This document shows positions 1,406 through 42,713 of a DNA stretch of 64,000 nucleotides, piece after piece. The DNA comes from a virus. The DNA lies in the IMG/VR virus record IMGVR_UViG_3300020045_013318, positions 13,136-77,135 of that record; one strand, 5' to 3'. The position numbers were made by a program, and so were the translations under genes. Every line of letters starts with the position of its first letter. Positions within the stretch are counted from its first letter, which is position 1. The notes under the pieces were generated by a model. It was not told where the DNA came from, made no database searches, and saw only the letters and a list, made by a program, of their open reading frames with translations.

Positions 1406-1822
1406 ATGATAAATGTAAAAGCCCAAGAAATTATAGATCGTATTGAAAAAGCCGCGCAAAATTATGGCAAAGTATTTGACTTTGACAAAATTGTAACTGC
1501 CTTAAAAAAACATTATACAGCTCTAAACATTCCAATACCTAAAATTGTTGCCGTAGACAATATGGAAGAAGCTTATAAAAACGCTCGGGATGCCGCTCGG
1601 GATGCCGCTCGGGATGCCGCTTGGGGTGCCGCTGACATTCTTGCACTCAACCTCGATGAATACAAAGCAAAATACCCAAATGGAAACTTTATAAACTTGG
1701 TTCCACTCTATGAAGCAGGTCTCTACCCAGTCGGTGTCGTCGATGGGAAATTCATTGTGTACGTACCACCATCGAAAACAGAGTTTCCAAGTGATTTAGT
1801 AGAGGAGATAGATAGTAAGTAA
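1406..1822 (+). CDS. [WR]DAA-repeat protein; apparent hybrid (phage B N-terminus, phage A C-terminus)
   Basis: ARDAARDAARDAAWGAA repeat; composition changes across the repeat. Confidence 0.75.
   Translation: MINVKAQEIIDRIEKAAQNYGKVFDFDKIVTALKKHYTALNIPIPKIVAVDNMEEAYKNARDAARDAARDAAWGAADILALNLDEYKAKYPNGNFINLVPLYEAGLYPVGVVDGKFIVYVPPSKTEFPSDLVEEIDSK
1583..1633 (+). repeat. 12-bp tandem repeat (YGGGRTGCCGCT), about 4 units
   Basis: gctcgggatgccgctcgggatgccgctcgggatgccgcttggggtgccgct read directly. Confidence 0.95.
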
Positions 1823-1826
1823 AAGT

Positions 1827-2285
1827 ATGACCACCCCCGCAAAAAAGGAACACCAAAAACATTGTAGAGAACGATATGGATATGCGTGTTCTTGTTTCCC
1901 TAGTTCAGATATAAATCTTTCATCAGACGTATTTGAACCTACCCCCGCAAAAGAGTGGCGTGAACAATTCAGAAATCAATTTTGGCTACATCGTGTACCT
2001 AAAAACACAAAGCAGATGCACGATATTGAAGACTTCATTCAAAACCTCCTCACCACCCACTCCGCTCGGCTTGTAGATAGGTTGGAAAGTAAGAGAAAAG
2101 AGTTCGTACCTGCTGATAATGTATGGGTTGGTGATGATGACTATGAAGTTGGGGAGTGGAAATTAGTACCAAAAGAAGACGGAATGTGGTGTTTGAATTG
2201 TGAGCAATTCATCCCAGAAGAAGGTTGTGCGTGTGGAGTTATATCAATCGACCAAGCCTTAGACATTATCAAGGATAATAAGTGA
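1827..2285 (+). CDS. hypothetical protein with Cys clusters
   Basis: ORF in operon; CLNC..CAC. Confidence 0.7.
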   Translation: MTTPAKKEHQKHCRERYGYACSCFPSSDINLSSDVFEPTPAKEWREQFRNQFWLHRVPKNTKQMHDIEDFIQNLLTTHSARLVDRLESKRKEFVPADNVWVGDDDYEVGEWKLVPKEDGMWCLNCEQFIPEEGCACGVISIDQALDIIKDNK

Positions 2286-2286
2286 T

Positions 2287-2571
2287 ATGAAAACAATGGA
2301 AGAACTACGAATCCTGGAAGTCCAAAAGGAAAAGGACCGCGAAGCAGAGGAAAAGCGACTTGCTGAGGAAGTGTTATGCGCTGAAATTACCTTCCCAACA
2401 AAGATGCAACTCGACCTCGGCATCTCTAACCTCACATTCAAATACGATGATGTAAAAGATTGGATAGAAGAAGAACTTGCAAACGCCGATAAGAAGTCCG
2501 TCACATTCAGCATCAAGTTCTTTATAAAAACAAACAAGTGGATAGAGAATTTGCCCGAAGCGGATATTTAG
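2287..2571 (+). CDS. hypothetical protein
   Basis: ORF abutting previous gene. Confidence 0.7.
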   Translation: MKTMEELRILEVQKEKDREAEEKRLAEEVLCAEITFPTKMQLDLGISNLTFKYDDVKDWIEEELANADKKSVTFSIKFFIKTNKWIENLPEADI

Positions 2572-2580
2572 TAACAGTAG

Positions 2581-2663
2581 GATGGGTGGTTTACACAGGG
2601 TCGTGCCTTTGCTGGATTCTCCAGCCCCTAAAGATGGGCGTGACCCGTTGCGAATCACTCATC
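2581..2663 (+). ncRNA. candidate structured RNA (long interrupted hairpin)
   Basis: GATGGGTGGTT/AATCACTCATC, GGGTCG/TGACCC and GCTGG/CCAGC nested stems with G-U pairs, intergenic. Confidence 0.45.
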
Positions 2664-2699
2664 ACAGACATAGGGATTATCAAGAGTAATTGAGAGAGT

Positions 2700-2888
2700 A
2701 TGAGCAATTATCAACTTATCGCACGAGACAGGATTACAGATGAGGAATTTACTGTTGTTGCTATGGATGACTATTTTGGAAGACATCACTACGGTTATGC
2801 CATAGGTGAACAAATTCTTACCGAGGAACAATTCCACCTAGCTTATGAGCCTGTAGTCAGTTCCCCCCACAATCGAACAGAGGATTAA
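2700..2888 (+). CDS. hypothetical protein
   Basis: 62 aa ORF, MDDYFGRHHYGY motif. Confidence 0.7.
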   Translation: MSNYQLIARDRITDEEFTVVAMDDYFGRHHYGYAIGEQILTEEQFHLAYEPVVSSPHNRTED

Positions 2889-2899
2889 AAGATAAGCAA

Positions 2900-3292
2900 A
2901 TGAGCATGAACAAAACCTTTATTTTAGAACAACAGAAGATTGCGAGGGAGAGAGCCAAAAATGCTTTGCTCCCAAAAGGAATAGACTCAAACGGCTTTGG
3001 AATGACATACGAAGACCTTGACACCCTCATTGCCCAAACCATCCTCGCGACTGAGGAAGAGACTCTTGCACGAGTGAGGGGGGAAGCAATTACTATTACA
3101 GCAAGACTTGATAGAGAGTTTTTCAAAGGCAGATTTTCATCTAGTGGACTTGAGTCTATAGAAGCAATCATCAAAGACGAACTCACACCCACTCCCGTAG
3201 AGAGCGAAGAAAGCGGTTTTGCTAAATTCCTCAAAGAAAACGGTCACGGCAATTCAGCAACTTCCACACCCTTACCAACCAATAAGACATAA
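2900..3292 (+). CDS. hypothetical protein
   Basis: ORF in operon; shares ETLARVR module with next gene. Confidence 0.7.
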   Translation: MSMNKTFILEQQKIARERAKNALLPKGIDSNGFGMTYEDLDTLIAQTILATEEETLARVRGEAITITARLDREFFKGRFSSSGLESIEAIIKDELTPTPVESEESGFAKFLKENGHGNSATSTPLPTNKT

Positions 3293-3297
3293 GAGAC

Positions 3298-3597
3298 ATG
3301 ACACAAACAAATGAGGAGAGAGTAGAGGCTCTTTACACAAACATAGTAATGATACTTATGAGTGGCTACCCAAGCGACCAAGAAGAAGAAAAAATAAAAC
3401 TGCGCTTGACACAAGCCCTCACCCAAAACACTGCAGAGACTCTTGCACGAGTGAGGGAGGTTGCAGAAAGCTGTTCAGTTAGTGAAGTTACTCTACAGGG
3501 AGACACATATGAGACGGGTATGATTGCAAAAGAGCTGTTTCTTAAAAAACTCACCACCCTCACACCATTAACATTAACAGACGATAAGACAGAATGA
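3298..3597 (+). CDS. hypothetical protein
   Basis: ORF in operon; ETLARVR module. Confidence 0.7.
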   Translation: MTQTNEERVEALYTNIVMILMSGYPSDQEEEKIKLRLTQALTQNTAETLARVREVAESCSVSEVTLQGDTYETGMIAKELFLKKLTTLTPLTLTDDKTE

Positions 3598-3598
3598 C

Positions 3599-3952
3599 AT
3601 GAAAGAAATAATCATTGCATTTGACGTTGATGGAACAATTCTCAATAACGAAGGGATACCTCCTGAAACTCCAACTCATTTACGACCACGTTGTGGGGTA
3701 AATCTTGAGGTCATCCAACTGATTCAAATTCTTTCAAAGAAAATGAAAAACACCAAGATTATCGTGTGGTCAGGTGGGGGAAAAGAGTATGCAACGCAGA
3801 TTGTTCGAGAATATGGATTAGATAAGTATGTGCACAGATGCCACAGTAAGCAAGACTACGACGAAACAATAGATGGAGAAGTTGATATTTGTTTTGATGA
3901 TGTTCACGCTTGCGAATTGGCGAAGATGAATCTAATTGTAAAAATGAAATGA
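3599..3952 (+). CDS. minimal HAD-superfamily hydrolase
   Basis: IAFDVDGT motif I, WSGG motif II, FDD motif IV. Confidence 0.8.
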   Translation: MKEIIIAFDVDGTILNNEGIPPETPTHLRPRCGVNLEVIQLIQILSKKMKNTKIIVWSGGGKEYATQIVREYGLDKYVHRCHSKQDYDETIDGEVDICFDDVHACELAKMNLIVKMK

Positions 3953-4287
3953 AAAAGTACGACAGAGAAAAAAGGAGGTGGGTGACTGCAGAAGAATACG
4001 AACGTACCCATCAATCAAAAGATAAGGCGTTTTGTCATGGGAAAACCCCACACGATTTTGTTTTAGTACTACCAGAATATGTTTCATACGACAGTAGATA
4101 TCAACACAATCCAGAAGCGTATTACGACCTACTTGATCAATACGAGAAATTGGAGGAAGAACTTGAGGAAAAAATAAAAGCAATGGGAGTAGTTGAGCGA
4201 TTTTCTCGTGGAGGTAAGTGGAGAAGAAGTTATCGTTTTTATCTATGTTCAGCATGCAAGAAGAAGCATTACGAATACAAAGAGTAA
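3949..4287 (+). CDS. hypothetical Zn-binding protein
   Basis: ATG at 3949 overlaps previous stop; CHGKTPHDF and CSAC. Confidence 0.65.
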   Translation: MKKYDREKRRWVTAEEYERTHQSKDKAFCHGKTPHDFVLVLPEYVSYDSRYQHNPEAYYDLLDQYEKLEEELEEKIKAMGVVERFSRGGKWRRSYRFYLCSACKKKHYEYKE

Positions 4288-4291
4288 CACT

Positions 4292-4822
4292 ATGAAAAGA
4301 TCTTGGATAAAAAGGGGAACAAAACAGATGAAAAGAACCCCTCTTCGTGCCAAATCAGGATTCAAGAAGATTCCGAAAGGATCCTCTACTCTAGTCACTC
4401 ACTCTTCCCTTCGAAATTCAGGTAAATCTGAAGTATCTCAGTGTAAAAAGCGTATACAGGCACTTTTACGCCAGTTGGCCATCAAACGTGATGGAGGATG
4501 TGTTTTGAGGCATTATCAAGACCTTCTTCATCCGGACTATTTGACTTGCGATGATGTTCTTCAGGCAGAACATCTAAATACCCGAGGATCCTCAGGAAGT
4601 TTTGGAGATATGCGGAATATTGTCTGCTTGTGTAGGAGACACCACATTTATTTCAAACCCCAGCACTCGCAGCTATATTGGGAAATTATTGAAAAACACC
4701 TTGGAGAAGAAGGATGGGCATATTATAAGAGAGTTCGAGATGATTATAGGGCACACCATATGATTCTCTGGGACTGGCAAAAATTGGAGATGGAGTTAAC
4801 CCAACAATTGAAACATGACTGA
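4292..4822 (+). CDS. NinG/Rap-like HNH recombination endonuclease
   Basis: IKRDGGCVL ... LQAEHLNTRG ... NIVCLCRRHH. Confidence 0.7.
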   Translation: MKRSWIKRGTKQMKRTPLRAKSGFKKIPKGSSTLVTHSSLRNSGKSEVSQCKKRIQALLRQLAIKRDGGCVLRHYQDLLHPDYLTCDDVLQAEHLNTRGSSGSFGDMRNIVCLCRRHHIYFKPQHSQLYWEIIEKHLGEEGWAYYKRVRDDYRAHHMILWDWQKLEMELTQQLKHD

Positions 4823-5156
4823 AGCAGAGGAAATAGTTTTTTTGAAGGAAAAGATGGAGAGGGATCGTATTCAATATTATCGAGTCGTTGATCAGCTCAA
4901 AAACGCACGAGAAGAAGTCAGGATGATCAAAGAGGCTACTCTTGCCTCATCAAAGAGTAAGTATGTTGAATATCTTCAATTGGCCCTCTCGATGACTGAA
5001 AGGCAATATGAAGAACTTCTCGATAAATTTGAGAAGTTAAACAACAAACTTAATCACGAGATGGCTAAGCGTCAGTATATTTTCCCCAGCAATCGACACG
5101 GGAAGATTCCCACGGTTGAAGTCCGTGTCGATCAAAAAGAATACGAGCAAATTTAA
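4815..5156 (+). CDS. coiled-coil hypothetical protein
   Basis: last gene of + operon; overlaps the convergent gene. Confidence 0.6.
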   Translation: MTEAEEIVFLKEKMERDRIQYYRVVDQLKNAREEVRMIKEATLASSKSKYVEYLQLALSMTERQYEELLDKFEKLNNKLNHEMAKRQYIFPSNRHGKIPTVEVRVDQKEYEQI

Positions 5157-5526
5157 TATTGTCGTCGGGATCAAATTTGTTTAATCCAAGGCGGTTCAAT
5201 TCAGGATCATGAACGCTGTTTAATTGGAAGATTCCTCCATCAGTTGTTCCATCTTTATTTTGAGTGGTGTTGTGGGCAGTTATTTTGTATTGACTTTCAC
5301 ATCGAGCTACTTCAAGCATGATTGGAGCATCTGGAAACGATTCTTCAATCTTCTCAATGATGTTTCCTTTTGTGTATTTTACTTCAATTTTAACTTCTTT
5401 TTGTTCAATTTCAATGATGGGTGCCTGACAAACAATCATCTCAGCTTGAGCCATCAGTGCATACGATATCAATACCCCCAATCCAATCCCCAGAAGCACA
5501 ATCACAGTTGACATCAACTGTTTCAT
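5065..5526 (-). CDS. lysozyme-like/SLT transglycosylase with N-terminal membrane anchor (endolysin candidate)
   Basis: VARCES catalytic Glu, DGGIFQLN, NIKFA, GLQPW; hydrophobic N-terminus. Confidence 0.8.
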   Translation of the reverse strand: MKQLMSTVIVLLGIGLGVLISYALMAQAEMIVCQAPIIEIEQKEVKIEVKYTKGNIIEKIEESFPDAPIMLEVARCESQYKITAHNTTQNKDGTTDGGIFQLNSVHDPELNRLGLNKFDPDDNIKFARILFDRHGLQPWESSRVDCWGKYTDA

Positions 5527-5571
5527 ATATTTCTTGTTATTTACAATAGACCTTCTGTCACTGCCCGCCTG

Positions 5572-5991
5572 TCACTGGCTTTTGCTCTCAATGGGTTTTT
5601 TCTTTCTTGAAGCCGTTCTCATTCTGTGACAATTTGCACAGACAACTTCACACTTTTTAACTTCTTTCTCCAACTTCTCCATAGAGATGGTAGTACAGGA
5701 AGCAATGCTAAATCTCTTATCTTGAAGGTGATCAAAATCAAGACACTCAGTTCGCTTCTCTCCACAATCTGTACAGGAGTGCTGCTTTTTATAGTTCCAG
5801 ATCCATTCGCGAATCTTTCTTCTACGTCTACCCGTTTGATCTATATAATGTTGTTTGTTGCGTTCGTAGGATTGTTTGTGAGAAACAGACTGACACAGAC
5901 GACATCTGTGACTCAAGCCATCCTTTGCTCTCTGGCGTTTATTAAACTCCAAGAGAGACTTTTTGACTTTGCATCTTGAGCAGGATTTCAT
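5572..5991 (-). CDS. HNH endonuclease
   Basis: CSRC/CRLC zinc finger, CTDCG..LDFDH..CEVVCANCHR; likely ATG at 5991. Confidence 0.85.
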   Translation of the reverse strand: MKSCSRCKVKKSLLEFNKRQRAKDGLSHRCRLCQSVSHKQSYERNKQHYIDQTGRRRRKIREWIWNYKKQHSCTDCGEKRTECLDFDHLQDKRFSIASCTTISMEKLEKEVKKCEVVCANCHRMRTASRKKKPIESKSQ

Positions 5992-6053
5992 GTCTATATC
6001 ATACCTCGTCCTGCCTTTAGACGACAACCCAAACTCTATCTCCCACCTCAATA

Positions 6054-6100
6054 AGTATACCCAATTCAATGAGTTCCTATAACGATAGGGGGTGCATTAC
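6054..6100 (-). promoter_or_regulatory. promoter with inverted box variant (GTAATGCACC-N31-TATACT)
   Basis: motif read directly; same geometry as other phage A promoters. Confidence 0.45.
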
Positions 6101-6288
6101 TTTTTGAAGAAAAAGCCAGCAACATCTGGGCGAGTGAGCTGATTGTAGATTGCAAGTATGAGTGCCACAGTTACAAAGAATCCCTCGACTGCCTTCTCGA
6201 CTGTGCCAGCCTCAAATTCTACTCCGAGAGCTGAAAGTAATGCTTCGACAATAAGTACACCAAGTGCTATTCCGTTTTTTGAAATCAT
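6097..6288 (-). CDS. holin-like two-TM protein
   Basis: 63 aa, two hydrophobic segments, basic C-terminus, in lysis position. Confidence 0.65.
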   Translation of the reverse strand: MISKNGIALGVLIVEALLSALGVEFEAGTVEKAVEGFFVTVALILAIYNQLTRPDVAGFFFKK

Positions 6289-7127
6289 GTTTTTTTTAGT
6301 AAAAGTTGATAAAGCTTGACCGCCTCCTGAAGAAGGTTGAGGAGTTTACCCTGTAATTCAGTTCGTGAGTCAAGTTGCTTTTTGACGACTTCAGGCAGTT
6401 GATTGTAGTGAACAATCCAACATTCAGTAGGCTTGTACTGAGTGTGAAGACGATATGCAGTACCTTTGTCTGCCCAATCAGTTCCCCACGTGTTTGCAAT
6501 GCGGAAAGATCTGCCATCATAGTTTGAATCCGTAACTGCATGTCCACTTATGATTTCTTTAGGTGGACGCAGTGGTTCAATTGGAGCTCTCCACCACTCA
6601 TTGCCAATTGCATATCGAGTTAGTACTCCAGCCTCACTTTCATTGATGGCTTGAGCCATAAGATCGCGATCGACAGGAACACTTGCGTAGGCAAGGATCT
6701 TGTTTTTGGCAGCAAGCACTTTAAGTTTCTCAATATCTTTATCTGAGACCGCTTGAAGTTTCTTGATATATTTTGCGTAAGAGAGTTTGCGATCATTCTC
6801 GTCTGTGAATGTCCAGTCTTTTTCCTCAAGAAATCCAATGTTTTTTGCTACCCACAGAGCGTGAGAGAGTGAAGATCCTTCATCCCAATTGCCCTGCTTC
6901 TTTTTTTGCATCAGATATTGAAAGTCTGCAGAGAATTTCTTCCCAAGAGCCTTTCGTGCGTTCTGCGTTGTGGCAATTGCGGTACAGATACCAACTCTGT
7001 GCTGGTCCTCAATGTCTTCAGGCTGATAACGAACTCCTCCACTGACTGGGATCCCAGAAGAGACATACGCAAAAGTACGAACATCGTATGGCGAAGACTC
7101 TGCTCCTGTTGAATATTCTTGTGGCAT
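6285..7127 (-). CDS. papain-like (C1) cysteine peptidase
   Basis: Q..VGICT (oxyanion Gln, catalytic Cys), SGHAV, ANTWGTDWADKG. Confidence 0.85.
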   Translation of the reverse strand: MPQEYSTGAESSPYDVRTFAYVSSGIPVSGGVRYQPEDIEDQHRVGICTAIATTQNARKALGKKFSADFQYLMQKKKQGNWDEGSSLSHALWVAKNIGFLEEKDWTFTDENDRKLSYAKYIKKLQAVSDKDIEKLKVLAAKNKILAYASVPVDRDLMAQAINESEAGVLTRYAIGNEWWRAPIEPLRPPKEIISGHAVTDSNYDGRSFRIANTWGTDWADKGTAYRLHTQYKPTECWIVHYNQLPEVVKKQLDSRTELQGKLLNLLQEAVKLYQLLLKKT

Positions 7128-7128
7128 A

Positions 7129-9969
7129 TTAATCTGGATTACCTGTTAAGTTCAGCTTTTTTGTTGGAAGAAGAACAATTTCGGCCTCATTCATGTCTCC
7201 CCCCATATTCTCATATGCAATCTTCTTTAATTTGGACGGAAGTTTGTCCAACTCAACAAAGATCTCTTCAGGAGAAACTTCCCTCTCCAGAACTTTGAAT
7301 TTCCCATACATATCCTTCCCGAAGCGATCAGCAACTTCCCTAGACGAAGTCCAGGAAGAGAACTGATCTTTCATAGAAGAATCAATTTCTTTTTGAGATG
7401 CATCTGACGCTTTGTATACTTTTATTTTGCCCAGAGGCTTATGTTCTGGCTTATTGAGAAAATCAAAGACATCTTTGGGAGGATTGTGCTGCATTCCTCG
7501 ATCTCCTTGCGTCCAGTAAGTTAGCCAAGTTTCTGCATTTTCTCTAGTAACTTTTTCCCTCTTTTGTTGTGAAATGCTGCCCATTGACTTCTTTTCAGGC
7601 TCCTGTACCCTATCATTAATGGTATTAGGCTTTTTAATAGGTCTTGCGATTTTCTGGCTCTTTTGGGTCCCCTTTCGCGATCGTTGATCTTTCAACGAAG
7701 CTGAGACTTTAGGTCCTTCAGATGCTTTGTTGTAGTCGATTGTTGGAAGATCACTCTTTGGAGCCTTCCCTGCCTTTCCAAAATCAATGACAGGAAGCTC
7801 GTCTGCAGGGATCAGAATTGGGTTTCCATTATCGATGATTTGGATATTGCCCTCACTGTCAATTCCTTCAATCTTGATCTTTCCTTTTGATTGATAGCCC
7901 TCCTCAAACGTCTTGATGTTTTCATTAGATCGCTCAGCTGCATCTCGTGTAGTTTGAGTCTTTTCTGGAAGTTTGATTGAGGATCCTGACTTGATTTCAG
8001 AACGATATGCCCCCTCCTTTGGAGCCGGGAGTGCCAATCGTGGAGCTTTGCTTTCTGCAACGGCTTTTTCGAGAATTGCAGATCGAGACGCTCCCTTGCC
8101 TGCTGCACCTCCAAGAGCACGACTGAGCATGATTCCTTGGATCCTTGAAGCCAATTCACCTCCAACAATGGTTCCAATTGCTGAGCCAGCCATTCCTCCA
8201 CTCATTCCTCCAGCAACTCCACCAGCAATATTTCCTGCGATCTGAGCAAAGTACTTGCCCATGCGGCCTCTGTTTACAATTTTGCCATCGAGACTCTCAA
8301 GGAAGTCCAAATCTTCGTAGTATTTTCCAAGCTCCTCATTGGCTTCTCGAATGTTGTATCGACTCTCTTTTTCAATGGTTCGCTTGAGTCCTTTGGCGAC
8401 TGCCTTTCTGTAGGCAGATTTGACAGGAGGAGTATTCCAGTTGATTTGAGCAGTAGTTCCAATCTTTTGACGATGAAGTTCAGCAAGATCAATTCTTCCA
8501 TCCTTGTTTGCTTTGAGTTTGTATCCCTCGATCTCTTTCTTGACATCATTGAGAGCTTTGAGGTGATCTTTCCCAGCAAGTTTACTATCTTTGACCGCTT
8601 TGATCAGGTTTCGTTCTACGACCGCAAGCTCAATGGAACGAGCTTCTTTTTCAAGAAGATCCATAACGACACTCTCTCCAGGCTCAACGTATTGAGCTTT
8701 GTACTGATCGTACGCTCCTCCAGGAGTTCTGGTTCGAATCAAGCCATTTTCGTCGACGGCTCCCACAAGAACATCTGTGTCAGCAATACGTTTACGACTG
8801 GAAGCACCTCCATCTTTAGAGTAGAGAGCATTCTTTCGCATGCCTGCATACTTTTGTTCAATTTCAAAGAGGGCTTTCTCACGACCGGCAATAACTTCCT
8901 CGGGAGTTTTGGTGAAGGGCTTTTTGATAACGTCTCCAGTTGCTTTGAATGGTGCATTGGCAACATTTTCAGCTGTCTGAACTCCTTTATTGATCACTCC
9001 TCCAACACTTTCAGGAAGAATGGCATGCTGAGCCATGAATTTTTCAACTGCTTGGGATCCTCGAGAAGCAACATCTTTCAAGATTGCGGGCGTAATGACA
9101 CCAATTGTCTTTCCAGCACCGTTGAGAAGTGGTTTCCCAACAAGATCAAGGAGTTTTCCTCCAGCAAGACCAAGGCCAGCATTGATTGCAGTTTCGGTAC
9201 TGAGGAGATCATTACCTTGCTCAAGCGACATTCCCGTTCCAAAGGCAGCTCCCCCAGACACAGGACCAAGTCCAAAGGCTGCCGTCTGCATTCCTCGTCC
9301 GACATCCTTTTTTACATCAGAGAAATTCTCTGGAACGGGAGCGACCCAATCTCCAAAGTTTCCTTTTGTGTATTTGTTGACTGTTTCTGCCGAAGCTCCA
9401 AGAAGTTCTGCTCCCGCTTGGAATGGACGAGCCAGCATTGTTGCTACAGGAGAAACAACTGCTTTGGCCATTCCTTTCCAAAAACCATCTCCCTCAGGTT
9501 GTGGTTGAGGAGCTGCTGTACTGGAAGGATTGTTAGGATCTGCAAATGCTTGACCTCCTTGCTTGACGGTCTGATAGGCGTCAGTCACCGATTTGACATA
9601 CTTAGGAACGTCATATTGGACTCCAGCGCCATTTACTCCTCGTTTGTTTTCCCATCCAACTTCTGATCCAGAGTTCCACTTTGCGGCAATTTGAGCTGGA
9701 TTAAGACCTTGATCTTTCCACGATTTGAGAACGGTGTAGGCAACCGCATTTTGATTTGAGGGAGACATCTCTGCATTTTCGTTCCCAAGAGCTTGTTTGG
9801 CGTGAGCTTTCCAAGTGTCAGGCATCCATTGGTATGCCCCTGATTCACCTGATCCACCTTTCGCATTAAAGTTGCCTCCAGATTCAGTCTGCCGGATCGC
9901 TTTTGCGAGATTTATGACATCATTATCCATCGATGGTGCTGATGGTTGTGTGGCTGGCTGTGGTGGCAT
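7129..9969 (-). CDS. internal virion/ejection protein, N-terminal lytic transglycosylase and C-terminal ADP-ribosyltransferase-like domain
   Basis: AIRQTESGGN..GAYQWMPDTW..AKWNSG; C-terminal VYKA..FSSWTS..EAEIV. Confidence 0.75.
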   Translation of the reverse strand: MPPQPATQPSAPSMDNDVINLAKAIRQTESGGNFNAKGGSGESGAYQWMPDTWKAHAKQALGNENAEMSPSNQNAVAYTVLKSWKDQGLNPAQIAAKWNSGSEVGWENKRGVNGAGVQYDVPKYVKSVTDAYQTVKQGGQAFADPNNPSSTAAPQPQPEGDGFWKGMAKAVVSPVATMLARPFQAGAELLGASAETVNKYTKGNFGDWVAPVPENFSDVKKDVGRGMQTAAFGLGPVSGGAAFGTGMSLEQGNDLLSTETAINAGLGLAGGKLLDLVGKPLLNGAGKTIGVITPAILKDVASRGSQAVEKFMAQHAILPESVGGVINKGVQTAENVANAPFKATGDVIKKPFTKTPEEVIAGREKALFEIEQKYAGMRKNALYSKDGGASSRKRIADTDVLVGAVDENGLIRTRTPGGAYDQYKAQYVEPGESVVMDLLEKEARSIELAVVERNLIKAVKDSKLAGKDHLKALNDVKKEIEGYKLKANKDGRIDLAELHRQKIGTTAQINWNTPPVKSAYRKAVAKGLKRTIEKESRYNIREANEELGKYYEDLDFLESLDGKIVNRGRMGKYFAQIAGNIAGGVAGGMSGGMAGSAIGTIVGGELASRIQGIMLSRALGGAAGKGASRSAILEKAVAESKAPRLALPAPKEGAYRSEIKSGSSIKLPEKTQTTRDAAERSNENIKTFEEGYQSKGKIKIEGIDSEGNIQIIDNGNPILIPADELPVIDFGKAGKAPKSDLPTIDYNKASEGPKVSASLKDQRSRKGTQKSQKIARPIKKPNTINDRVQEPEKKSMGSISQQKREKVTRENAETWLTYWTQGDRGMQHNPPKDVFDFLNKPEHKPLGKIKVYKASDASQKEIDSSMKDQFSSWTSSREVADRFGKDMYGKFKVLEREVSPEEIFVELDKLPSKLKKIAYENMGGDMNEAEIVLLPTKKLNLTGNPD

Positions 9970-9975
9970 AATAGT

Positions 9976-11415: not shown

Positions 11416-11420
11416 GGTAA

Positions 11421-12410: not shown

Positions 12411-12412
12411 AA

Positions 12413-14242: not shown

Positions 14243-14244
14243 AT

Positions 14245-14565: not shown

Positions 14566-14566
14566 A

Positions 14567-14917: not shown

Positions 14918-14918
14918 A

Positions 14919-15740: not shown

Positions 15741-15741
15741 G

Positions 15742-33517: not shown

Positions 33518-34245
33518 AAATAATAACATACGACAGTCGAGAGGAGTGGCTCAAGGGTCGCCTTGGCAAGATCACAGGATCTAAACTCAATGAGGTGTTC
33601 TCTGTCAAGGAGGTAACAAAGGATGAGATTTCGAAGATTCTAGATCGAGAAAAAATTGAGTACAAAAAGAGCGAAAAGAAGGAAGTTTTGGAGCAATTGG
33701 TTCCAGAAAAATACAAATCAGAACTTCTGGGAAAGCGAGAGTATAAACTTGGATTCTATGAAGTATTGGCAGAACGATTGTCTGTTCCCGAAGAGGGAAA
33801 TGAGACACCAATAGATCGCGGAACTCGACTTGAAGGACCAGCTCTTGACGTCTTTGCAGAAATGACTAAAAAGAAAATCAAAAATGACTTGATTCTTTGG
33901 GTCTCTGATGAGGATGAGGGAATGGCCTACTCACCTGATGGATGTATTTCACCCAAGGAAGTCGTTGAGGTAAAATGTTTGTCTTCTGCCAGACACTTAA
34001 TGGCATACTTCGAACAAACAATTCCTTCTGAGTATGTCAAGCAGTGCTTGCAGGGATTTATAGTCAATGAAAAGCTTCAGATTTGTCATATTGCCTTCTT
34101 TGATCCAAGAATTCCATCAAAACCTCTTCACTGGATAACTCTCAATCGGAAAGATCTTGTTTCGGACATTGAGATGTATCGACAACACGAATTATCAACA
34201 ATTAAAGAATTAGAAGAAAAAGTTAATCAACTAGCATCATACTAA
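33514..34245 (+). CDS. YqaJ/lambda exonuclease-like recombinase
   Basis: EWLKGRLGKITGS, RGTRLE, SPDG, EVKC, Y..Q. Confidence 0.9.
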   Translation: MKIITYDSREEWLKGRLGKITGSKLNEVFSVKEVTKDEISKILDREKIEYKKSEKKEVLEQLVPEKYKSELLGKREYKLGFYEVLAERLSVPEEGNETPIDRGTRLEGPALDVFAEMTKKKIKNDLILWVSDEDEGMAYSPDGCISPKEVVEVKCLSSARHLMAYFEQTIPSEYVKQCLQGFIVNEKLQICHIAFFDPRIPSKPLHWITLNRKDLVSDIEMYRQHELSTIKELEEKVNQLASY

Positions 34246-34247
34246 AC

Positions 34248-34424
34248 ATGCAAATTCGAATCTCAGTGACGGACTTCAAAAGTAAAAGAGGATACAACAC
34301 TCTTGTAAAAAAACTCAGCAACAATGGTATTGGATATGCAATTGAGTATGCCAAAGCACCAAAGGAGCGACTTTTGGTTTCTGGAAGAAAGGATCAAATA
34401 TTAAAAGTTCTTGAATTAATATAA
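34248..34424 (+). CDS. small hypothetical protein (58 aa, not in ORF track)
   Basis: fills the gap between exonuclease and ssb. Confidence 0.55.
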   Translation: MQIRISVTDFKSKRGYNTLVKKLSNNGIGYAIEYAKAPKERLLVSGRKDQILKVLELI

Positions 34425-34427
34425 ATT

Positions 34428-34880
34428 ATGTCAATCAATCTAAATGTGGCAATTGTGTCAGGACGCCTTGTTCGAGATCCAGAATTAAAAGCACTCCCAA
34501 GTGGGGTTTCAATTTGTAATTTCAGTCTAGCTACCAATCACATCTATACAAAAGATAGTGAAAAAAAGGAGTCGGTTGAATTTCATAATGTCGTCCTGTT
34601 TGGGAAACAAGCAGACAACACGGCTCGGTTCCTCAAAAAAGGATCAGAAGCTCTCGTTGAGGGTCGCCTTCAAACTCGATCTTGGGAAAAAGATGGCGTA
34701 AAGCACTACCGAACTGAAATTGTGGGAGACTCAATACAATTTGGATCCAAACAATCATCTCAAAACAACGATGTTGAAGAAGAGAATAATGAGGAAGAAA
34801 CTCCAAAATTAAAAACAAAGAAGATTGAAGCGCCTGAATATCCAGAAGGTGAGATAAATCCCGACGATATTCCTTATTAA
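34428..34880 (+). CDS. ssb: single-stranded DNA-binding protein
   Basis: GRLVRDPEL, FSLATN, KGSEALVEGRLQTRSW, acidic DDIPY tail. Confidence 0.95.
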   Translation: MSINLNVAIVSGRLVRDPELKALPSGVSICNFSLATNHIYTKDSEKKESVEFHNVVLFGKQADNTARFLKKGSEALVEGRLQTRSWEKDGVKHYRTEIVGDSIQFGSKQSSQNNDVEEENNEEETPKLKTKKIEAPEYPEGEINPDDIPY

Positions 34881-35710: not shown

Positions 35711-35778
35711 TTATGCACCTTTAGATTTGATTGTCCTATACCAATCAAGTATACTGAAGGTTGGCTCGTTCTTTGAAA
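35710..35778 (+). promoter_or_regulatory. queE promoter (GTTATGCACC, TTGATT-N17-TATACT) and boxA-like GTTCTTTGAAA
   Basis: motifs read directly. Confidence 0.65.
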
Positions 35779-35790
35779 AGGAGAAAGAAA

Positions 35791-36516
35791 ATGCTTAAAG
35801 TAAATGAAATCTTTGGACCAACAATCCAAGGTGAAGGAAAGAATGCGGGGAAGCCAGTTGTTTTCCTCCGCTTGTCGCAATGCAATCTCCACTGTATTTG
35901 GTGTGATACTCCTCATACATGGAATTGGGAGGGTACGAAGTTTGCTCACCCAATCAAGTTTGTCCAAACTGAAGAAGAGCATCTGATGTCAGTTGATGAT
36001 GTTTTTTTGAAGGTTTTGGAAAAAAGTGGTGGAGAAATCGAGTCGTTGGTGATCTCGGGCGGCGAGCCCCTTCTTCAACAAAAAGAACTAACCGACCTGC
36101 TTCGCGTCTTGAAGTCGATTGGTTGGTTTGTTGAAGTTGAAACCAATGGAACGGTCCCACTCCGACCTGAGTTTGCAATTTTGATAGATCAGATCAATTG
36201 CTCTCCCAAGTTGGCAAATTCGTTGGATCCTGAATCGCTTCGAATCAAGAAGAAGACGTTAGAGCAACTTGCTTCAAATTCTAAAGTCAACTTCAAGTTT
36301 GTTGTGTCAGATGAAGGAGATGTCCCTGAAATCTTGTCGATTGTTGAACTGCTTCGGCAGTCTGGCACTCCTGAGATTCGTCTGATGCCCCTTTGTCAGA
36401 CGCGGGAAGAACTCGAGATGAGAGAACTTCTCGTCAAAGAGTTGGCCCAGAAGCACAACTTCATTTACTGCACACGGTTGTCGATTTTGATGTCGGGGAC
36501 CAAGCGTGGTGTTTGA
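35791..36516 (+). CDS. queE: 7-carboxy-7-deazaguanine synthase (radical SAM)
   Basis: EIFGPTIQGEG, CNLHCIWCDT (CX3CX2C), ISGGEPLLQ, ETNGT, SPKL. Confidence 0.95.
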   Translation: MLKVNEIFGPTIQGEGKNAGKPVVFLRLSQCNLHCIWCDTPHTWNWEGTKFAHPIKFVQTEEEHLMSVDDVFLKVLEKSGGEIESLVISGGEPLLQQKELTDLLRVLKSIGWFVEVETNGTVPLRPEFAILIDQINCSPKLANSLDPESLRIKKKTLEQLASNSKVNFKFVVSDEGDVPEILSIVELLRQSGTPEIRLMPLCQTREELEMRELLVKELAQKHNFIYCTRLSILMSGTKRGV

Positions 36517-36693: not shown

Positions 36694-36721
36694 TTATACA
36701 TTACAAGATAAGTATTAAGAG

Positions 36722-37156
36722 ATGTTAATTACCAAAGAAATAGAAATCGACATGGGTCACCGTGTCACAAATCACAAATCGAAGTGCAGTTCACTTCACG
36801 GACATCGTTATCGAATTGAAGTAGGAGTTGATGATAAAGTAATCACAACCGAAGGATCTTCGGACGAAGGAATGGTGATAGACTTTGGAGATTTGAAAGA
36901 AGTTATGATGGAAGTATTGGATGCTCCATTCGATCATGGAATGGTCTTATGGCTCAAAGATCCTCTTGTTTCATATATTCTAGCAGATGAAAAGACTAAG
37001 TGTCACTTGGTTGGATTTATTCCAACGGCAGAAAATCTAGCTCGGTATTGGTTCTATCTTTTGAAGCCAAGATTGGAGGAGAGAGATGTTAAAATTAAAC
37101 ACATTAAAGTTTGGGAAACTCCATCTAGTACCGCAACATATGAAGAAACTAACTAA
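36722..37156 (+). CDS. queD: 6-carboxytetrahydropterin synthase
   Basis: GHR, C..LHGHRY, GMVIDFGDLK, FDH, PTAENLA, VWET. Confidence 0.95.
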   Translation: MLITKEIEIDMGHRVTNHKSKCSSLHGHRYRIEVGVDDKVITTEGSSDEGMVIDFGDLKEVMMEVLDAPFDHGMVLWLKDPLVSYILADEKTKCHLVGFIPTAENLARYWFYLLKPRLEERDVKIKHIKVWETPSSTATYEETN

Positions 37157-37781
37157 AGCAAACGGAAATATATTCCGTTCAGAAGAAGAAAAAGAATCAA
37201 TGGTCCTCAGTGCATCACATCATTATGGGTTGTTTCTCAACGCTCTAGGATTCGATTGGGAGGCCGATTCAGCAATGAAAGATACACCAACACGAGTGGC
37301 GAAGGCGTGGGTTTATGACTTAATTTCAGGATCTATGGCAAAAGAGCCATCTGATAAATCATTTCCAAACGAAGAGGGGTACACTGGACTAATTTGTCAA
37401 ACAAACATTCCGGTTGTCAGTATTTGTGCTCATCATCACTTGCCATTCACAGGGACTGCTCATGTTGCTTATATTCCTGGAAAAACAATTCAAGACTCAG
37501 TGATTGGACTTAGTAAATTGAATCGAATTGTCGAATTCTATTCACGACGTCCAAATATTCAAGAATCTCTTACAAAGCAAGTTCACGATCATATTGACCG
37601 GCTATGTGTTGGGAATCGAGGAGTTGCAGTTGTCATTGAGGCTCAACATAGTTGTGTTTCTTGTAGAGGCGTAAGACATACAAGCAAGATGAAGACAAGT
37701 CAGTTGTCGGGGTATTTTTGGGCCAACGAAGTTGGTACAAGACAAGAATTCTTCAATCTAATTGACCAGGGGAGATATTAG
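37140..37781 (+). CDS. folE: GTP cyclohydrolase I
   Basis: DTPTRVAKAW, SICAHHHLPF.G, GLSKLNR, RRP.IQE.LT, AQHSCV.CRGV. Confidence 0.95.
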   Translation: MKKLTKANGNIFRSEEEKESMVLSASHHYGLFLNALGFDWEADSAMKDTPTRVAKAWVYDLISGSMAKEPSDKSFPNEEGYTGLICQTNIPVVSICAHHHLPFTGTAHVAYIPGKTIQDSVIGLSKLNRIVEFYSRRPNIQESLTKQVHDHIDRLCVGNRGVAVVIEAQHSCVSCRGVRHTSKMKTSQLSGYFWANEVGTRQEFFNLIDQGRY

Positions 37782-37798
37782 AAGTAGAATGAAAGTAT

Positions 37799-39037: not shown

Positions 39038-39842
39038 AGTATCATTCATTGCTCCAACGAGTCTGATCCCACAATACGGGAACCAAGGAGATTTTCATCT
39101 AGCACTCGCTCATCTTCTTGGGCCAGTCAATGAGACTCCTAACGAGTACGAACAAGCGTTGATCAACTCAGGACTTCCAATCATTCTTGACAATGGACTA
39201 TTTGAAAATAAAGAATCGGTCCCAGTACGAGAATTAATGGAGAAGGCTGTCCACCTCAACGCAACACATGTCTTTGCTCCTGATGTTCTTTTTGATCGAG
39301 AGGGTACAGAGGCAAATATTGAGGAGGCTTATGCAGTTCTAGAGGAGATTAAGGCAGACTTTCCAGAATGCCAAACAAAACTTGCAGCAGTTGTTCAGGC
39401 AAACAGCGCTGATGATTTTCTAGCAAGCTACCTTCTCATGGCAGACGATCCAAGAATCGATCTGATAGGGTTATCCATTCTGTCTGTTCCACATTCATTT
39501 AAGGAGATCTCAGGAACTGACGACATTACAATCAATCGAATTATCTGCCTCAAGAGACTCAACAAACTTCCAATTCATAAAGACTCACACCTTCTTGGAC
39601 TTGGAGACTCATACGAAGATGTTGCGTTTGCAAACGAGCATTGTCCTTGGGTTGTTTCTCACGACAGCTCATCTGCTGTCTGGAATGGAGTTCAGGGGAA
39701 GAATATTCACTCAACATCTCTCAAGGTTGCTGGAGGTAAAACTAAAGTTCATGTCGACTTTGCCTTTGGGGATGAGTTGACTGAGGTACAAGTGGCCGAC
39801 ATTACACACAACATTGAAGTCGTTAAATCAATCATTAAATAA
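39030..39842 (+). CDS. DpdA/TGT-like TIM-barrel transglycosylase
   Basis: ILDNGLF (cf. DSGGF), APDV, VVQ, IGL, HLLG, SHDSS; context with folE/queD/queE. Confidence 0.7.
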   Translation: MIKVSFIAPTSLIPQYGNQGDFHLALAHLLGPVNETPNEYEQALINSGLPIILDNGLFENKESVPVRELMEKAVHLNATHVFAPDVLFDREGTEANIEEAYAVLEEIKADFPECQTKLAAVVQANSADDFLASYLLMADDPRIDLIGLSILSVPHSFKEISGTDDITINRIICLKRLNKLPIHKDSHLLGLGDSYEDVAFANEHCPWVVSHDSSSAVWNGVQGKNIHSTSLKVAGGKTKVHVDFAFGDELTEVQVADITHNIEVVKSIIK

Positions 39843-39843
39843 T

Positions 39844-40230
39844 ATGCAAATCAATCCACGAACAATCCTCGATCGAGGAATCATAAAGTATTGTGAAACA
39901 ACCAAGGTTCAGCAGGTAGGAGTAGATCTCTCAATTGGACAAGACTTTGTCGTCAAAGTGGGCGAGTCGAAGAATATCAACTTCCGAGAAAGCATCAAGC
40001 TTCCTGACAACATGTATGCACTGTTCTATGTGCGATCATCATGGAGTCGCAAGGGAGTATTTGTAAGTTCTGGCGTCTACGATAGTGGATATGAGGGAAC
40101 GATTGGGTGCACCATCTACAATATGTCTGGAGAAGATGTTCAATTTACAGAAGGAGATCGTATTGGGCAAATGATTTGTTATTTGGCTGATGCGGCAAGT
40201 AGTTACAATGGTCAATTTCAGGGGAAATAA
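39844..40230 (+). CDS. trimeric dUTPase/dCTP deaminase family protein
   Basis: GVDL, RSS..RKG, GVYDSGYEG, GDRIGQM, YNGQFQG. Confidence 0.85.
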   Translation: MQINPRTILDRGIIKYCETTKVQQVGVDLSIGQDFVVKVGESKNINFRESIKLPDNMYALFYVRSSWSRKGVFVSSGVYDSGYEGTIGCTIYNMSGEDVQFTEGDRIGQMICYLADAASSYNGQFQGK

Positions 40231-40231
40231 T

Positions 40232-40378
40232 ATGAGAGTAAAAATTAAAATATCGTCAGGGAAAATCCTCGAGATTGAGGGAAAGATTCTTGAGAAGAGA
40301 GAGTTGTTTGGACGCAAGGAGGCTCTGATTGATGGGAAGCTGTCGAAGCCTATCTGGGTGACTATTCCAAAAAAATGA
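40232..40378 (+). CDS. small hypothetical protein
   Basis: ATG at 40232; KILEKRELFGR. Confidence 0.55.
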   Translation: MRVKIKISSGKILEIEGKILEKRELFGRKEALIDGKLSKPIWVTIPKK

Positions 40379-40701
40379 AAGGAATAGATTTCTCCGCATT
40401 GAAGGAGAGATTGAAAAATCCAACAGACGATCTTCCAAACTTCCCATACGAATTTTGGGTAAATAAGACAGCAAAGCTATTGAAAAAACCCTACATTCAA
40501 GTTCATGGATTAGTCGCAAAAGAAGGATTGACACTCGAGGGGATCACAAGGAGATACAACAACGCAACAAAACACAATGGAGACATGCCGTCGGAAGTCT
40601 ATTGGTGGTGGAGGAGAAAGGTTGAATATAAAAATGAAAAAGAAAAAAGTATACCCAACAAACAAAAGTGTGCACCTTCTCGGGAAGGTAGCAAATCATG
40701 A
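40375..40701 (+). CDS. hypothetical protein
   Basis: ATGA overlap, 108 aa. Confidence 0.65.
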   Translation: MKGIDFSALKERLKNPTDDLPNFPYEFWVNKTAKLLKKPYIQVHGLVAKEGLTLEGITRRYNNATKHNGDMPSEVYWWWRRKVEYKNEKEKSIPNKQKCAPSREGSKS

Positions 40702-41167
40702 AGGCAAACTCAAGGTTAAATTAAATGGACCTCAGTACTTGGATCACTTCCTCAAGAATCACACTAAGGTTGGAGATGATGTTTTGATGGTTGTGACAGC
40801 AAAAAGGCCAAAAAGGTCAGCTTCTCAAAACAACTTCTTTTTTGTCTATTTAGATTTAATCTCTCTCTCATGTGGACACTCAATTGAGGAGCTCCATAAG
40901 TGGGTCAATGGGTACATCTTGGGACAAGGAATCACTGAAGTGTTTGGCCAGAAGGTTCGTATGGTTGGAAGTACTTCTGATCTCAATATCAGTGAGTTTT
41001 GTGAGATGATGAATAGAATTTTTGAAGAGACTGATATTCCGATTCCAGATCCTGAGCCCTTCAATCTTCCTCTGACGTACAATGAGTTTGGAAAATTAAA
41101 ACTAGATCAGCAAATTCAGTATAAAAAAATGAAAAATAGACTTCTCGAGAGGAATTTGTCTAATTAA
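40634..41167 (+). CDS. NinB/YbcN-like recombination protein
   Basis: KRSASQNNFFF, EELH, STSDLNISEF..MMNRI, IPIPDP. Confidence 0.7.
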   Translation: MKKKKVYPTNKSVHLLGKVANHEGKLKVKLNGPQYLDHFLKNHTKVGDDVLMVVTAKRPKRSASQNNFFFVYLDLISLSCGHSIEELHKWVNGYILGQGITEVFGQKVRMVGSTSDLNISEFCEMMNRIFEETDIPIPDPEPFNLPLTYNEFGKLKLDQQIQYKKMKNRLLERNLSN

Positions 41168-41190
41168 GTGCATATTTTGAAGTAAATGAC

Positions 41191-41234
41191 TGTTCATAAC
41201 TATAGTTGATAGGGATAAGGAATGGGAGTATGGT
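41191..41234 (+). promoter_or_regulatory. promoter (TGTTCATAAC-N5-TTGATA-N17-TATGGT)
   Basis: first 19 nt identical to the promoter at 32372. Confidence 0.7.
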
Positions 41235-41261
41235 GTATGTATACAAGTATAAGCAAACAAT

Positions 41262-41447
41262 ATGAGAAAACAACAAAACCAAGGCTACGAAATATACAAC
41301 ACCTTCAAACGAAGCCCTATCGAGAACGATTGGTACATCATCCCCCTTGTTATTCTAGGCACCTTCCTCGCCGTAACCCTATACGCAGGAGTAGATTTGG
41401 TCTTTAATGTCATGGTCGAGTTTATTGGAGGGTTAATGGTGAACTAA
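41262..41447 (+). CDS. small membrane protein
   Basis: hydrophobic C-terminal half; first ORF after promoter. Confidence 0.65.
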   Translation: MRKQQNQGYEIYNTFKRSPIENDWYIIPLVILGTFLAVTLYAGVDLVFNVMVEFIGGLMVN

Positions 41448-41448
41448 C

Positions 41449-41691
41449 ATGACATTCATACAAGAGAAGGTGGAGGCTCTATTTAAAGACGACTCAATTC
41501 GCAGTCGCAAATTTGAAAACAAAATAAAGAAAGCCCTCACTGAAGCTCTCGAAGAAGGCAAGCGGATGGCCTGTGCAGAGATAGAGAAGAGGGTGGAACA
41601 GACGCATGGCTTTACAAGCCCAAATTCAGTTGAAAGAATCATTAAGGAACGTGACATCCTCACCATTACCAAGGAGATAGCTAACAAATAA
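41449..41691 (+). CDS. hypothetical protein
   Basis: 80 aa in operon. Confidence 0.7.
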   Translation: MTFIQEKVEALFKDDSIRSRKFENKIKKALTEALEEGKRMACAEIEKRVEQTHGFTSPNSVERIIKERDILTITKEIANK

Positions 41692-41693
41692 AT

Positions 41694-42713
41694 ATGAAAT
41701 ACAAACAAGAACTACCTGTAAAAGTTGAAGCACAATTAGACGCATACATAGAACGTATCAAAGCGATTAAATGGTTCCAACCAAGTAGTGAATTAAAACG
41801 TGCAGAGATTGACACCCAAGTAAACCTTGCCCTTAAGGCATTTGGTGTAGAAGCATCTATTGAGTATCGAACATTAAAAACACCACAAGATTGGGATGCC
41901 GCTTGGGATGCCGCTCGGGATGCCGCTCTGGATGCCGCTTGGGATGCCGCTTGGGATGCAGCTTGGGATGCCGCTTGGGATGCCGCTCGGGATGCCGCTC
42001 GGGATGCCGCTCTGGGTGCCGCTTGGGATGCCGCTTGGGATGCCGCTTGGGATGCCGCTCGGGATGCCGCTTGGGGTGCCGCTTGGGGTGCCGCTTGGGA
42101 TGCCGCTTGGGGTGCCGCTGCAATAAATACTAAATTACAGGATAAAACAATGCTTAAATTTATTGAAATTGAAACCCCCTTATTGGAAGCTTTAGAATTT
42201 GGTTTGGGATATTTCTTTCCCATGAAAGATATGCTAATTATTGTCCCTTGTCCTTCTTTTATTTTTAACAATAAAAAACAATTACATTCAGAAGAGACAA
42301 TGGCTATATCATGGAAAGATGGAACGGGGTATTATTTCCTTGATGGAGTAAAATTAAAAGAATCTGTTTGGAAAAACATTCTCTCTCGTTCTATGTCTTT
42401 TGAAGAAGTTGCCATGCTTAAAAATATAGAAGATCGTATGGTCGCTCTTAAATACAACCCTAATGCTCTTCTTAAAAATGCGATTTTACTTGACAAAACA
42501 AAGCGTAACGAACTTTGGCTTATAGAAGGATTTGGTACAAATTCACAAAACAAAATTGATGCCTTTTTTCTGAAATATACTTGTCCTTCTACAGGTAGAG
42601 TTTATACAAAAGGCGTTCCTGTTGAAGTTGGCAAACAAAAAGATGCTGACGAAGCTCAAGCATGGAGCCATTGGCTTTCAAAAGAGGCTTATCAATTATT
42701 AAATGAGTCTTAA
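41694..42713 (+). CDS. [WR]DAA-repeat protein with DUF6745-like C-terminus; apparent hybrid (phage A N-terminus, phage B C-terminus)
   Basis: 19 four-residue repeats; LHSE..MAISWKDG.GYYFLDGV, CPSTGRVY..GVP, ADEAQAWS. Confidence 0.8.
   Translation: MKYKQELPVKVEAQLDAYIERIKAIKWFQPSSELKRAEIDTQVNLALKAFGVEASIEYRTLKTPQDWDAAWDAARDAALDAAWDAAWDAAWDAAWDAARDAARDAALGAAWDAAWDAAWDAARDAAWGAAWGAAWDAAWGAAAINTKLQDKTMLKFIEIETPLLEALEFGLGYFFPMKDMLIIVPCPSFIFNNKKQLHSEETMAISWKDGTGYYFLDGVKLKESVWKNILSRSMSFEEVAMLKNIEDRMVALKYNPNALLKNAILLDKTKRNELWLIEGFGTNSQNKIDAFFLKYTCPSTGRVYTKGVPVEVGKQKDADEAQAWSHWLSKEAYQLLNES
41892..42119 (+). repeat. 12-bp tandem repeat, 19 units
   Basis: TGGGATGCCGCT units with CGG/CTG and GGT variants; same unit as 1583-1633. 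Confidence 0.95.

Follow-up and report, generated by a model that had tools for sequence, protein, structure and literature searches.

The window analysed here (64 kb, bases 13136-77135 of the 77,135-bp IMG/VR virus record IMGVR_UViG_3300020045_013318, renumbered from 1) contains sequence of two distinct genomes. An inner phage, termed A, extends from 1634 to 41891 and is flanked on both sides by sequence of an outer phage, termed B, and both joins lie within tandem arrays of a 12-bp coding repeat that belongs to a gene of either phage. The two open reading frames (ORFs) that cross the joins are, with strong support from homologous proteins, judged to be the reciprocally swapped halves of these two genes. 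We consider it likely that the contig is an inter-genome chimera of assembly or library preparation and not a real insertion of one phage into another; the nesting of A in B is most probably not biology. The first-pass annotation of this DNA had proposed a whole phage genome nested in a second one by a reciprocal crossover inside the repeat; as its origin, it had considered both integrase-free cointegration and a de Bruijn misjoin, with the artefact being no less probable. Its swapped structure stood up to our analysis, but nesting by crossover as a biological event did not, the artefact being favored by indirect evidence.

Both junction ORFs are encoded on the plus strand, P0001 at 1406-1822 (138 aa) and P0002 at 41694-42713 (339 aa); each was cut at its array and the halves were searched separately. 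The C-terminal half of P0001 (residues 77-138, 1634-1822) has 11 homologs with 67-86% identity, all of which (11/11) start with MKYxQELPxEVEAQLDAYIERIKAIKWFQP, that is, with the N-terminus of P0002, and display the A-type pattern MKYxQELP...IERIKAIKWFQP. Among the homologs of the N-terminal half of P0002 (residues 1-66, 41694-41891) that are at least 186 aa long, eight of eight end in A-type C-termini and none of the eight in a DUF6745-like domain. These two halves are assigned to the repeat gene of phage A. A profile of the A family is split on the contig, its positions 1-118 being located at 41694-42047 and its positions 95-174 at 1562-1801, and the nearest relative of the two halves, which lie 40 kb apart, is one and the same protein (P0015; identity of 0.82 for the N-terminus and 0.90 for the C-terminus).

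The other two halves are assigned to the repeat gene of phage B. Its DUF6745-like C-terminal module (P0002 residues 143-339, 42120-42713) has 983 homologs at E<=0.001 among 1.84 billion representatives. The link to the N-terminal module (P0001 residues 1-59, 1406-1582) rests on a phmmer search of a pool of 154 proteins, consisting of the 150 best of these 983 homologs plus four from another search, in which the first 60 residues of P0001 produced 18 hits at E<=0.01. The best hit, P0023 (E 1.2e-23, aligned over residues 2-59), is composed of the B-type N-terminus, six array units and then 'AVNTGLRDEATLKFISIE...', which corresponds to the full swapped B protein; P0070, P0069, P0021, P0106 and P0030 follow with E values from 4e-15 to 1e-12. 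No hit in this pool of 154 was obtained with either the N-terminus of P0002 or the C-terminus of P0001. By BLASTP, P0001 matched P0004 only over 15 N-terminal residues (11/15 identical, E 1e-4), and nothing significant was obtained against the protein of locus L010, which is described below.

The expectation that swapping the halves restores two coherent genes was thus borne out, the swapped forms being the native ones (11/11, 8/8 and 18/154), and all motifs quoted in the first-pass annotation were found in the translations. Full-length homologs of the unswapped proteins, which would speak against a swap, were sought as well; none of either P0001 or P0002 as printed was seen among the 8 + 11 + 154 homologs, while the swapped forms do have them. 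Directly upstream of the B repeat gene lies its proposed partner, the B gene P0003 (1090-1404, plus strand, 104 aa) with RHGD and TGHKH motifs. A 104-aa ORF in L010, 31% identical to P0003 along the entire protein (E 6e-10), is located directly upstream of a full-length gene with N-terminus, array and DUF6745-like C-terminus, so that the suggested partnership recurs in the same order at this single distant locus.

Exactly two arrays, both of period 12, were reported by Tandem Repeats Finder in the window, with 4.3 copies at 1582-1633 and 19.1 copies at 41891-42119. Read as codons on the plus strand, the left junction array (1583-1633; G+C content (GC) 0.745) is made up of four units coding RDAA RDAA RDAA WGAA, and the right junction array (41892-42119, GC 0.697) of 19 units of (W/R/L)(D/G)AA, for which the codons GAT/GGT GCC GCT are used nearly always. 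The array unit in the genes of both phages is the 12-mer TGGGATGCCGCT, coding (W/R)(D/G)AA. The longest exact match between the two junctions is 35 bp and occurs in two registers, 1599-1633 = 42049-42083 and 1587-1621 = 41977-42011, both of which are equally long candidates for the site of exchange. The presence of arrays with 35-bp identity at both junctions, as claimed earlier, was thereby reproduced, and a self-BLAST of the 77,135-bp contig revealed that the arrays are the sole DNA common to its inner and outer parts.

The switch in base composition that had been noticed at both arrays is evident from the flanks as well as from the gene modules. The inner part (1634-41891) has a GC of 0.418, and the B flanks range from 0.32 to 0.36. 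Across the left junction, GC is 0.32 in the B flank (1-1405), 0.305 in the N-terminal module (1406-1582), 0.40 in the C-terminal module (1634-1822) and 0.42 in the A flank (1823-4000); across the right junction, it is 0.40 in the A flank (39500-41693), 0.36 in the N-terminal module (41694-41891), 0.325 in the C-terminal module (42120-42713) and 0.32 in the B flank (42714-45000). Tetranucleotide frequencies correlate with r = 0.89 between the two halves of A and with r = 0.76 between B-left and the adjoining B-right, in comparison to r = 0.37-0.40 between B-left and A; towards the right-hand extremity of B the contrast weakens, with r = 0.54 against B-left and r = 0.70 against one of the A halves. 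BLASTP between A and B proteins detected a single pair, two GroELs that are 27% identical. The two-genome content of the contig follows from the GC and tetranucleotide contrast, from the two divergent GroELs and from the swapped forms being the native ones. The same data bear on the view that the record is one genuine 77-kb phage genome with native ORFs as printed, in which the inner 40 kb represent an old mosaic block. That the contig is a single record without N and that both junction ORFs are open is compatible with this view, which we nevertheless regard as highly improbable given the two GroELs, the sharp switch in composition at the arrays, the lack of full-length homologs of the printed proteins compared with the many homologs of the swapped forms, and an inner block that equals a complete, self-closing phage genome of the 40-44 kb class.

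The phage A unit (1634-41891) comprises 40,258 bp plus its part of the arrays, and closing it at either of the 35-bp stretches results in a circle of 40,390 or 40,450 bp, i.e. about 40.39-40.45 kb. A phage gene set between the arrays, as had been reported, was confirmed: on the minus strand, A encodes a major head protein (21418-22476; phrog_9953, E 4e-28), a portal (23331-25193; phrog_156, E 1.5e-6), a large terminase (25521-27083; phrog_675, E 3.6e-79, the single match in the 77-kb contig) and a GroEL (27067-28626; phrog_5725, E 4.3e-115), and tail-type proteins are present as well. The terminase has 57 relatives in IMG/VR with 66-92% identity, and ten of the longer of these records were examined. 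Two of the ten have direct terminal repeats and measure 41,008 and 43,960 bp; of the other eight, six are 39.7-43.2 kb long, the two exceptions being G012 and G011. The contigs that carry the A-type proteins nearest to those of the window (P0011, P0012 and P0014) are of similar size (40,383, 40,515 and 40,849 bp). Judged from these relatives, the block between the arrays corresponds to a single complete genome from a phage group known to measure 40-44 kb.

That A closes on itself, as the first-pass annotation had supposed, is supported by G012. With 71-86% nucleotide identity, this 34,501-bp relative is collinear with A and has the order window-equivalent 20223-41138, then 4.4 kb of unrelated small genes, then 4423-14868, with no B-like DNA in G012 across the two 'ends' of A. 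By this comparison, the 'ends' are neighbors in the relative, and the inner unit closes on itself there. A unit-length insert flanked by direct repeats would also be expected if A were a prophage in B or a B-like element, integrated by a site-specific recombinase with the array as attachment site. A search for tyrosine and serine recombinases (PF00589 and PF00239, the only families searched) found no match anywhere in the 77-kb contig, with controls matching in 14/14 and 12/14 genomes, and we rate this explanation as the least probable of those considered.

Two co-occurring phages, each with a gene consisting of an N-terminal module, an array and a C-terminal module, would suffice to generate the observed contig during assembly. 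In the assembly graph, phage A (about 40.4 kb, GC 0.42) would be a closed cycle and phage B a path, and cycle and path would meet only at the k-mers of the array, where the longest identity is 35 bp. A walk of the assembler from B-left into the array, one turn round the A cycle, through the array again and out to B-right would yield exactly one A unit inside the B gene, plus two in-frame hybrid ORFs. For an exchange at 1599-1633, the only hybrid word is the one spanning 1598-1634 (37 bases); a graph with k<=36 would therefore contain the path without any hybrid word. With this register, the native A gene would have 16 array units and the native B gene seven, and the native B array would then be RDAA RDAA RDAA WGAA WGAA WDAA WGAA, resembling the RDAA RDAA WGAA WGAA RDAA WGAG of P0023; an exchange at 1587-1621 would assign 11 units to A and 12 to B. 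The first-pass annotation had pointed out that both genes are kept in frame. We attach no weight to this property, since any in-register exchange within a 12-bp array preserves the frame, and the open hybrid frames therefore say nothing about the mechanism.

A chimera of assembly or library origin is supported by the presence of exactly one unit of an otherwise stand-alone A, by the join lying in the sole DNA that both phages have in common, by the lack of hybrid homologs and by the absence of matches to tyrosine or serine recombinases in the contig, and we infer from these indirect lines of evidence that physically joined molecules were probably absent. The merging of co-existing viruses that have similar regions into one chimeric contig is a documented error and affected <5% of contigs >=10 kb in simulated viromes, being more common with IDBA-UD and metaSPAdes than with MEGAHIT (PMC5610896). 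The contig resembles such inter-genome chimeras in that two co-occurring viruses are joined with breakpoints in their sole common region (PMC5610896). Unlike in the usual end-to-end chimeras, however, the common region consists here only of a tandem array of a 12-bp coding repeat, with exact identity over 35 bp, and the product, a complete unit-length genome within a gene whose two hybrid frames stay open, has a more biological appearance.

Other assemblies, too, are disturbed by arrays of this family. The contig of L009 (gene 1-392) ends within the array, so that the N-terminus of the gene is missing. In the gene of L007 (3435-4010), the array is out of frame for ~35 codons (GMPHGVPHG...) and then back in frame. 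Moreover, 61 exact 21-mers of L004 (array at 1975-2089) and 79 of L006 (array at 606-804) are common with the window arrays, although these contigs are otherwise unrelated and the flanking parts of the proteins are only 65-68% identical. An over-length record among the A-like terminase relatives (G011, IMGVR_UViG_3300020045_009706, 57,878 bp, composed of L070, L028 in reversed orientation, L071 and L072) bears genes at 6565-7452 and 14486-16393 that recur at 50927-51810 and 55684-57674 with 65-68% nucleotide identity, 41-44 kb apart. By its gene content, this record holds about 1.35 genome lengths from two diverged relatives in one contig.

Several points weigh against an artefact. Many current pipelines finish their assembly with k>=37, in which case the left junction would need reads that reach from sequence unique to B across the 52-bp array into sequence unique to A, and such reads would arise only from a physical join or from library chimeras. 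No A-only or B-only contig of the same strain was found, although the searched sets may not include near-identical records. Phage A itself codes for a recombination exonuclease (33514-34245, plus strand; phrog_149, E 4e-17, and the RecE-like phrog_434, E 4.3e-15), an SSB (34428-34880, plus strand; phrog_44, E 1.3e-42) and a NinB/Orf-like recombination mediator (40577-41167, plus strand; phrog_72, E 2.3e-7). Within the A family, the congruence between N- and C-modules is weak (Mantel r 0.37, reached by 27/2000 permutations, with P0012 left out because its flanks equal those of P0011, and L007 and L009 because their genes are broken or partial). One member, P0013, has an N-module identical to that of L006 (405-932) at 0.87 and a C-module at only 0.49, and its identity to P0015 is 61% in the N-module and 90% in the C-module; these contrasts would stem either from an exchange in nature within the array or from a further chimera of assembly. 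Finally, the 35-bp identity exceeds the minimal efficient pairing segments, which are given for Red-beta as 23-27 bp and for RecA as 31-34 bp (PMC3945230).

The main alternative is a real cointegrate, in which a circular or concatemeric A recombined with B in a co-infected cell within the 35-bp stretch of the array, either by a phage exonuclease/annealing system or by host RecA. The product would be a Campbell-type insertion of A into the B repeat gene, and the molecule sampled would be an intracellular intermediate of replication or recombination. According to the Campbell model, a circular genome that crosses over once, reciprocally, with another replicon at a short common sequence yields precisely this topology. 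The geometry of the contig is exactly the one expected of such an event: the insert is a single unit of a circular genome, array copies flank it in the same orientation, and the junctions are reciprocal hybrids. The exonuclease, the SSB and the Orf-like mediator of A together with the 35-bp identity make a real exchange mechanistically possible, and B codes for an exonuclease-like protein as well; a weak PD-(D/E)XK match is a further feature of B. Identical GC-rich array codons in A, B, L004 and L006, whose backbones and GC differ, and the discordant modules of the A family would likewise fit array-mediated exchange over evolutionary time, but the discordant modules come from metagenome assemblies that possibly harbor the same artefact. 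Furthermore, neither hybrid protein was found among the 8 + 11 + 154 homologs, and no single-strand annealing protein or RecA family member was identified, the 201-aa ORF upstream of the exonuclease of A matching only PHROGs of unknown function. With at least 77 kb, a cointegrate would be larger than the A-like genomes as a class (41-44 kb) and should therefore be rare and unlikely to win the assembly; it would be unpackageable in a ~40-kb capsid and should not dominate a sample. The graph walk and a Campbell-type exchange give an identical product, so the sequence of the contig alone cannot decide between them, and taking all points together we regard a real cointegrate as unlikely.

Were the molecule real, it would be related to, and distinct from, known modes of phage recombination. 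It would resemble the relaxed recombination by phage recombinases, for which short identical segments suffice (PMC3945230). Unlike the known recombinase mosaics, in which modules are swapped between related phages or prophages and the genome remains of packageable size, a whole heterologous phage genome would lie inside a gene of another phage. In the modular theory of phage evolution, conserved boundary sequences serve as points of exchange. The array would be comparable as a short stretch that is conserved in phage genes with no other relationship and could thus act as an exchange handle, but the handles of the modular theory are located between genes or modules of related phages, whereas the present one would be a hypervariable minisatellite that is itself coding and in frame. 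In its full form, this explanation states that two unrelated phages of the same host, with the same in-frame 12-bp minisatellite in homologous genes of N-module, array and C-module, recombined at ~35 bp of array identity by the exonuclease-SSB-Orf system and that the array is a portable, frame-preserving handle, which we find rather doubtful. If it were true, cointegrate intermediates would be formed whose resolution at another repeat unit would result in shuffled N- and C-modules and in the transfer of flanking genes between unrelated phages, and the discordant modules of P0013 as well as the identical array codons at different GC would be footprints of array exchange.

If the contig is the chimera that we favor, it represents a clean warning case. 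The record is classed as 'linear' with a CheckV completeness of 100%, and such a public entry would hold one genome and part of another, while its two intact-looking hybrid ORFs would enter protein databases as false domain architectures. Since its 21-mers recur unchanged in contigs that are otherwise unrelated, the coding minisatellite can cause false joins or breaks in further assemblies as well. If the join is real, it would provide an integrase-free route for one phage genome to ride inside another, with a coding repeat as recombination handle between unrelated phages, which bears on the origin of phage mosaicism. Either way, the repeat-gene family with its 983 homologs and without a known fold match is real and uncharacterised.

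In members of the B family, a short N-module with '...Y..L.IP.PKIV' at its end is followed by a tetrapeptide array, the length of which varies, and by a C-domain of ~200 aa, which in the more distant members is Pfam DUF6745 (PF20530). With a cut-off of 27 bits, P0006 (35.6), P0007 (28) and P0009 (58.8) pass, and P0005 and P0008 remain below. P0002 itself matched no Pfam family at E<=1, and its predicted membership of DUF6745 is only transitive, via phmmer E values of 1e-21 to 1e-27. Like the DUF6745 proteins, the nearest homologs of the 42120-42713 module also comprise an N-terminus, a (W/R)(D/G)AA array and a C-terminus; the differences are that P0002 does not score above the Pfam gathering threshold and that the A-type protein is devoid of the DUF6745 core. 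In an hhalign comparison, the A family aligns with the B family over the initial ~160 columns of the latter (probability 96%, E 3.4e-9), with the array adding to the score, and by this alignment the A gene is a short form of the B-family layout. The C-domain encoded by 42120-42713 was modeled by AlphaFold with a pLDDT (predicted local distance difference test) of 92.7. Foldseek yielded no match of this model to the PDB at E<=0.001, the best VIA-align wide result had a Z of 4.3 over 45 residues, and the model may therefore represent an undescribed fold. A full-text literature search for 'DUF6745' returned no paper.

The arrays vary between close relatives. P0011 (136 aa) and P0012 (180 aa) have identical flanks, the array of the latter being longer by 44 residues, and their contigs (40,383 and 40,515 bp) differ by exactly 132 bp, corresponding to 44 codons; this difference is either true variation between near-identical phages or the collapse of one array in assembly. 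The DNA unit of the array occurs in lineage-specific codon versions, namely GATGCCGCT in the window, L004 and L006, GATGCCGCA in L007, and GACGCAGC(A/T) in L005 and L008.

The A-type array gene was found in none of the ten records sharing the A terminase, with a positive control that worked, and the A terminase in none of the five records carrying the A-type array gene. From this distribution, the gene is considered accessory and mobile among backbones. The ORF at 41449-41691, upstream of the A-type N-terminus, has no BLASTP similarity to the G012 ORF at the equivalent place, and the downstream ORF at 1827-2285 gave a weak BLASTP match (26%, E 1e-5). A promoter at 41191, postulated as the start of the operon, was not confirmed: a match of 9/12 consensus positions is present at 41177-41206, but the 10 such matches in this region do not clearly exceed the 6.1 +/- 2.6 expected from shuffles. 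Against 50,697 cultured phage records, the A terminase had 683 matches, all with <60% identity and with ~24-26% among those listed, and P0016 had no match in this set. The recombination module of A extends over 32912-34880 of the window plus 40577-41167. Further A genes encode a QueE-like radical SAM protein (35761-36516; PHROGs E 4e-55), a GTP cyclohydrolase (37086-37781; PHROGs E 2e-56) and an HNH endonuclease.

Of phage B (GC about 0.35), only about 36.6 kb are present in the contig. The 77,135-bp contig has no exact terminal repeat of 10-299 bp, so that B is not closed in it. Neither a terminase nor a portal of B was recognized by PHROGs or Pfam in the 28 submitted of 56 called B ORFs, phrog_675 matching A only, and the window end at position 64000 falls within an open minus-strand frame; B is therefore probably incomplete in the contig, or else too divergent for its terminase and portal to be recognized. 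Queries with B sequences found few relatives. The C-terminal module led to one distant viral-contig locus, L010 (32% identity), and to no locus among metagenome contigs, and the B GroEL likewise led to a single distant one, L011 (30%). No exact match was obtained in viral contigs for the 33-mer preceding the left array, or in metagenome contigs for the 32-mer preceding the right array. Ten large B ORFs (300-753 aa) on the minus strand at 45458-60416 are presumed to form a structural operon; they had no PHROG hit at E<=1e-5, and nine of the ten had no hit at E<=0.01 in a Pfam scan. Among the recognizable genes of B are the second chaperonin of the contig, a GroEL at 43113-44834 (plus strand; phrog_5725, E 3e-75), a capsid-like protein at 61435-62400 (minus strand; PF25209 Phage_capsid_4, E 2.6e-5, 25.1 bits and thus under the cut-off of 27), a helicase and a methyltransferase fragment, along with weak matches to a primase zinc-ribbon and GH18. 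In L008, a 161-aa ORF at 1520-2005 with a run of pentapeptide repeats (ADLSGANLYGADLRGADL...) is located ~0.8 kb downstream of the A-type array gene.

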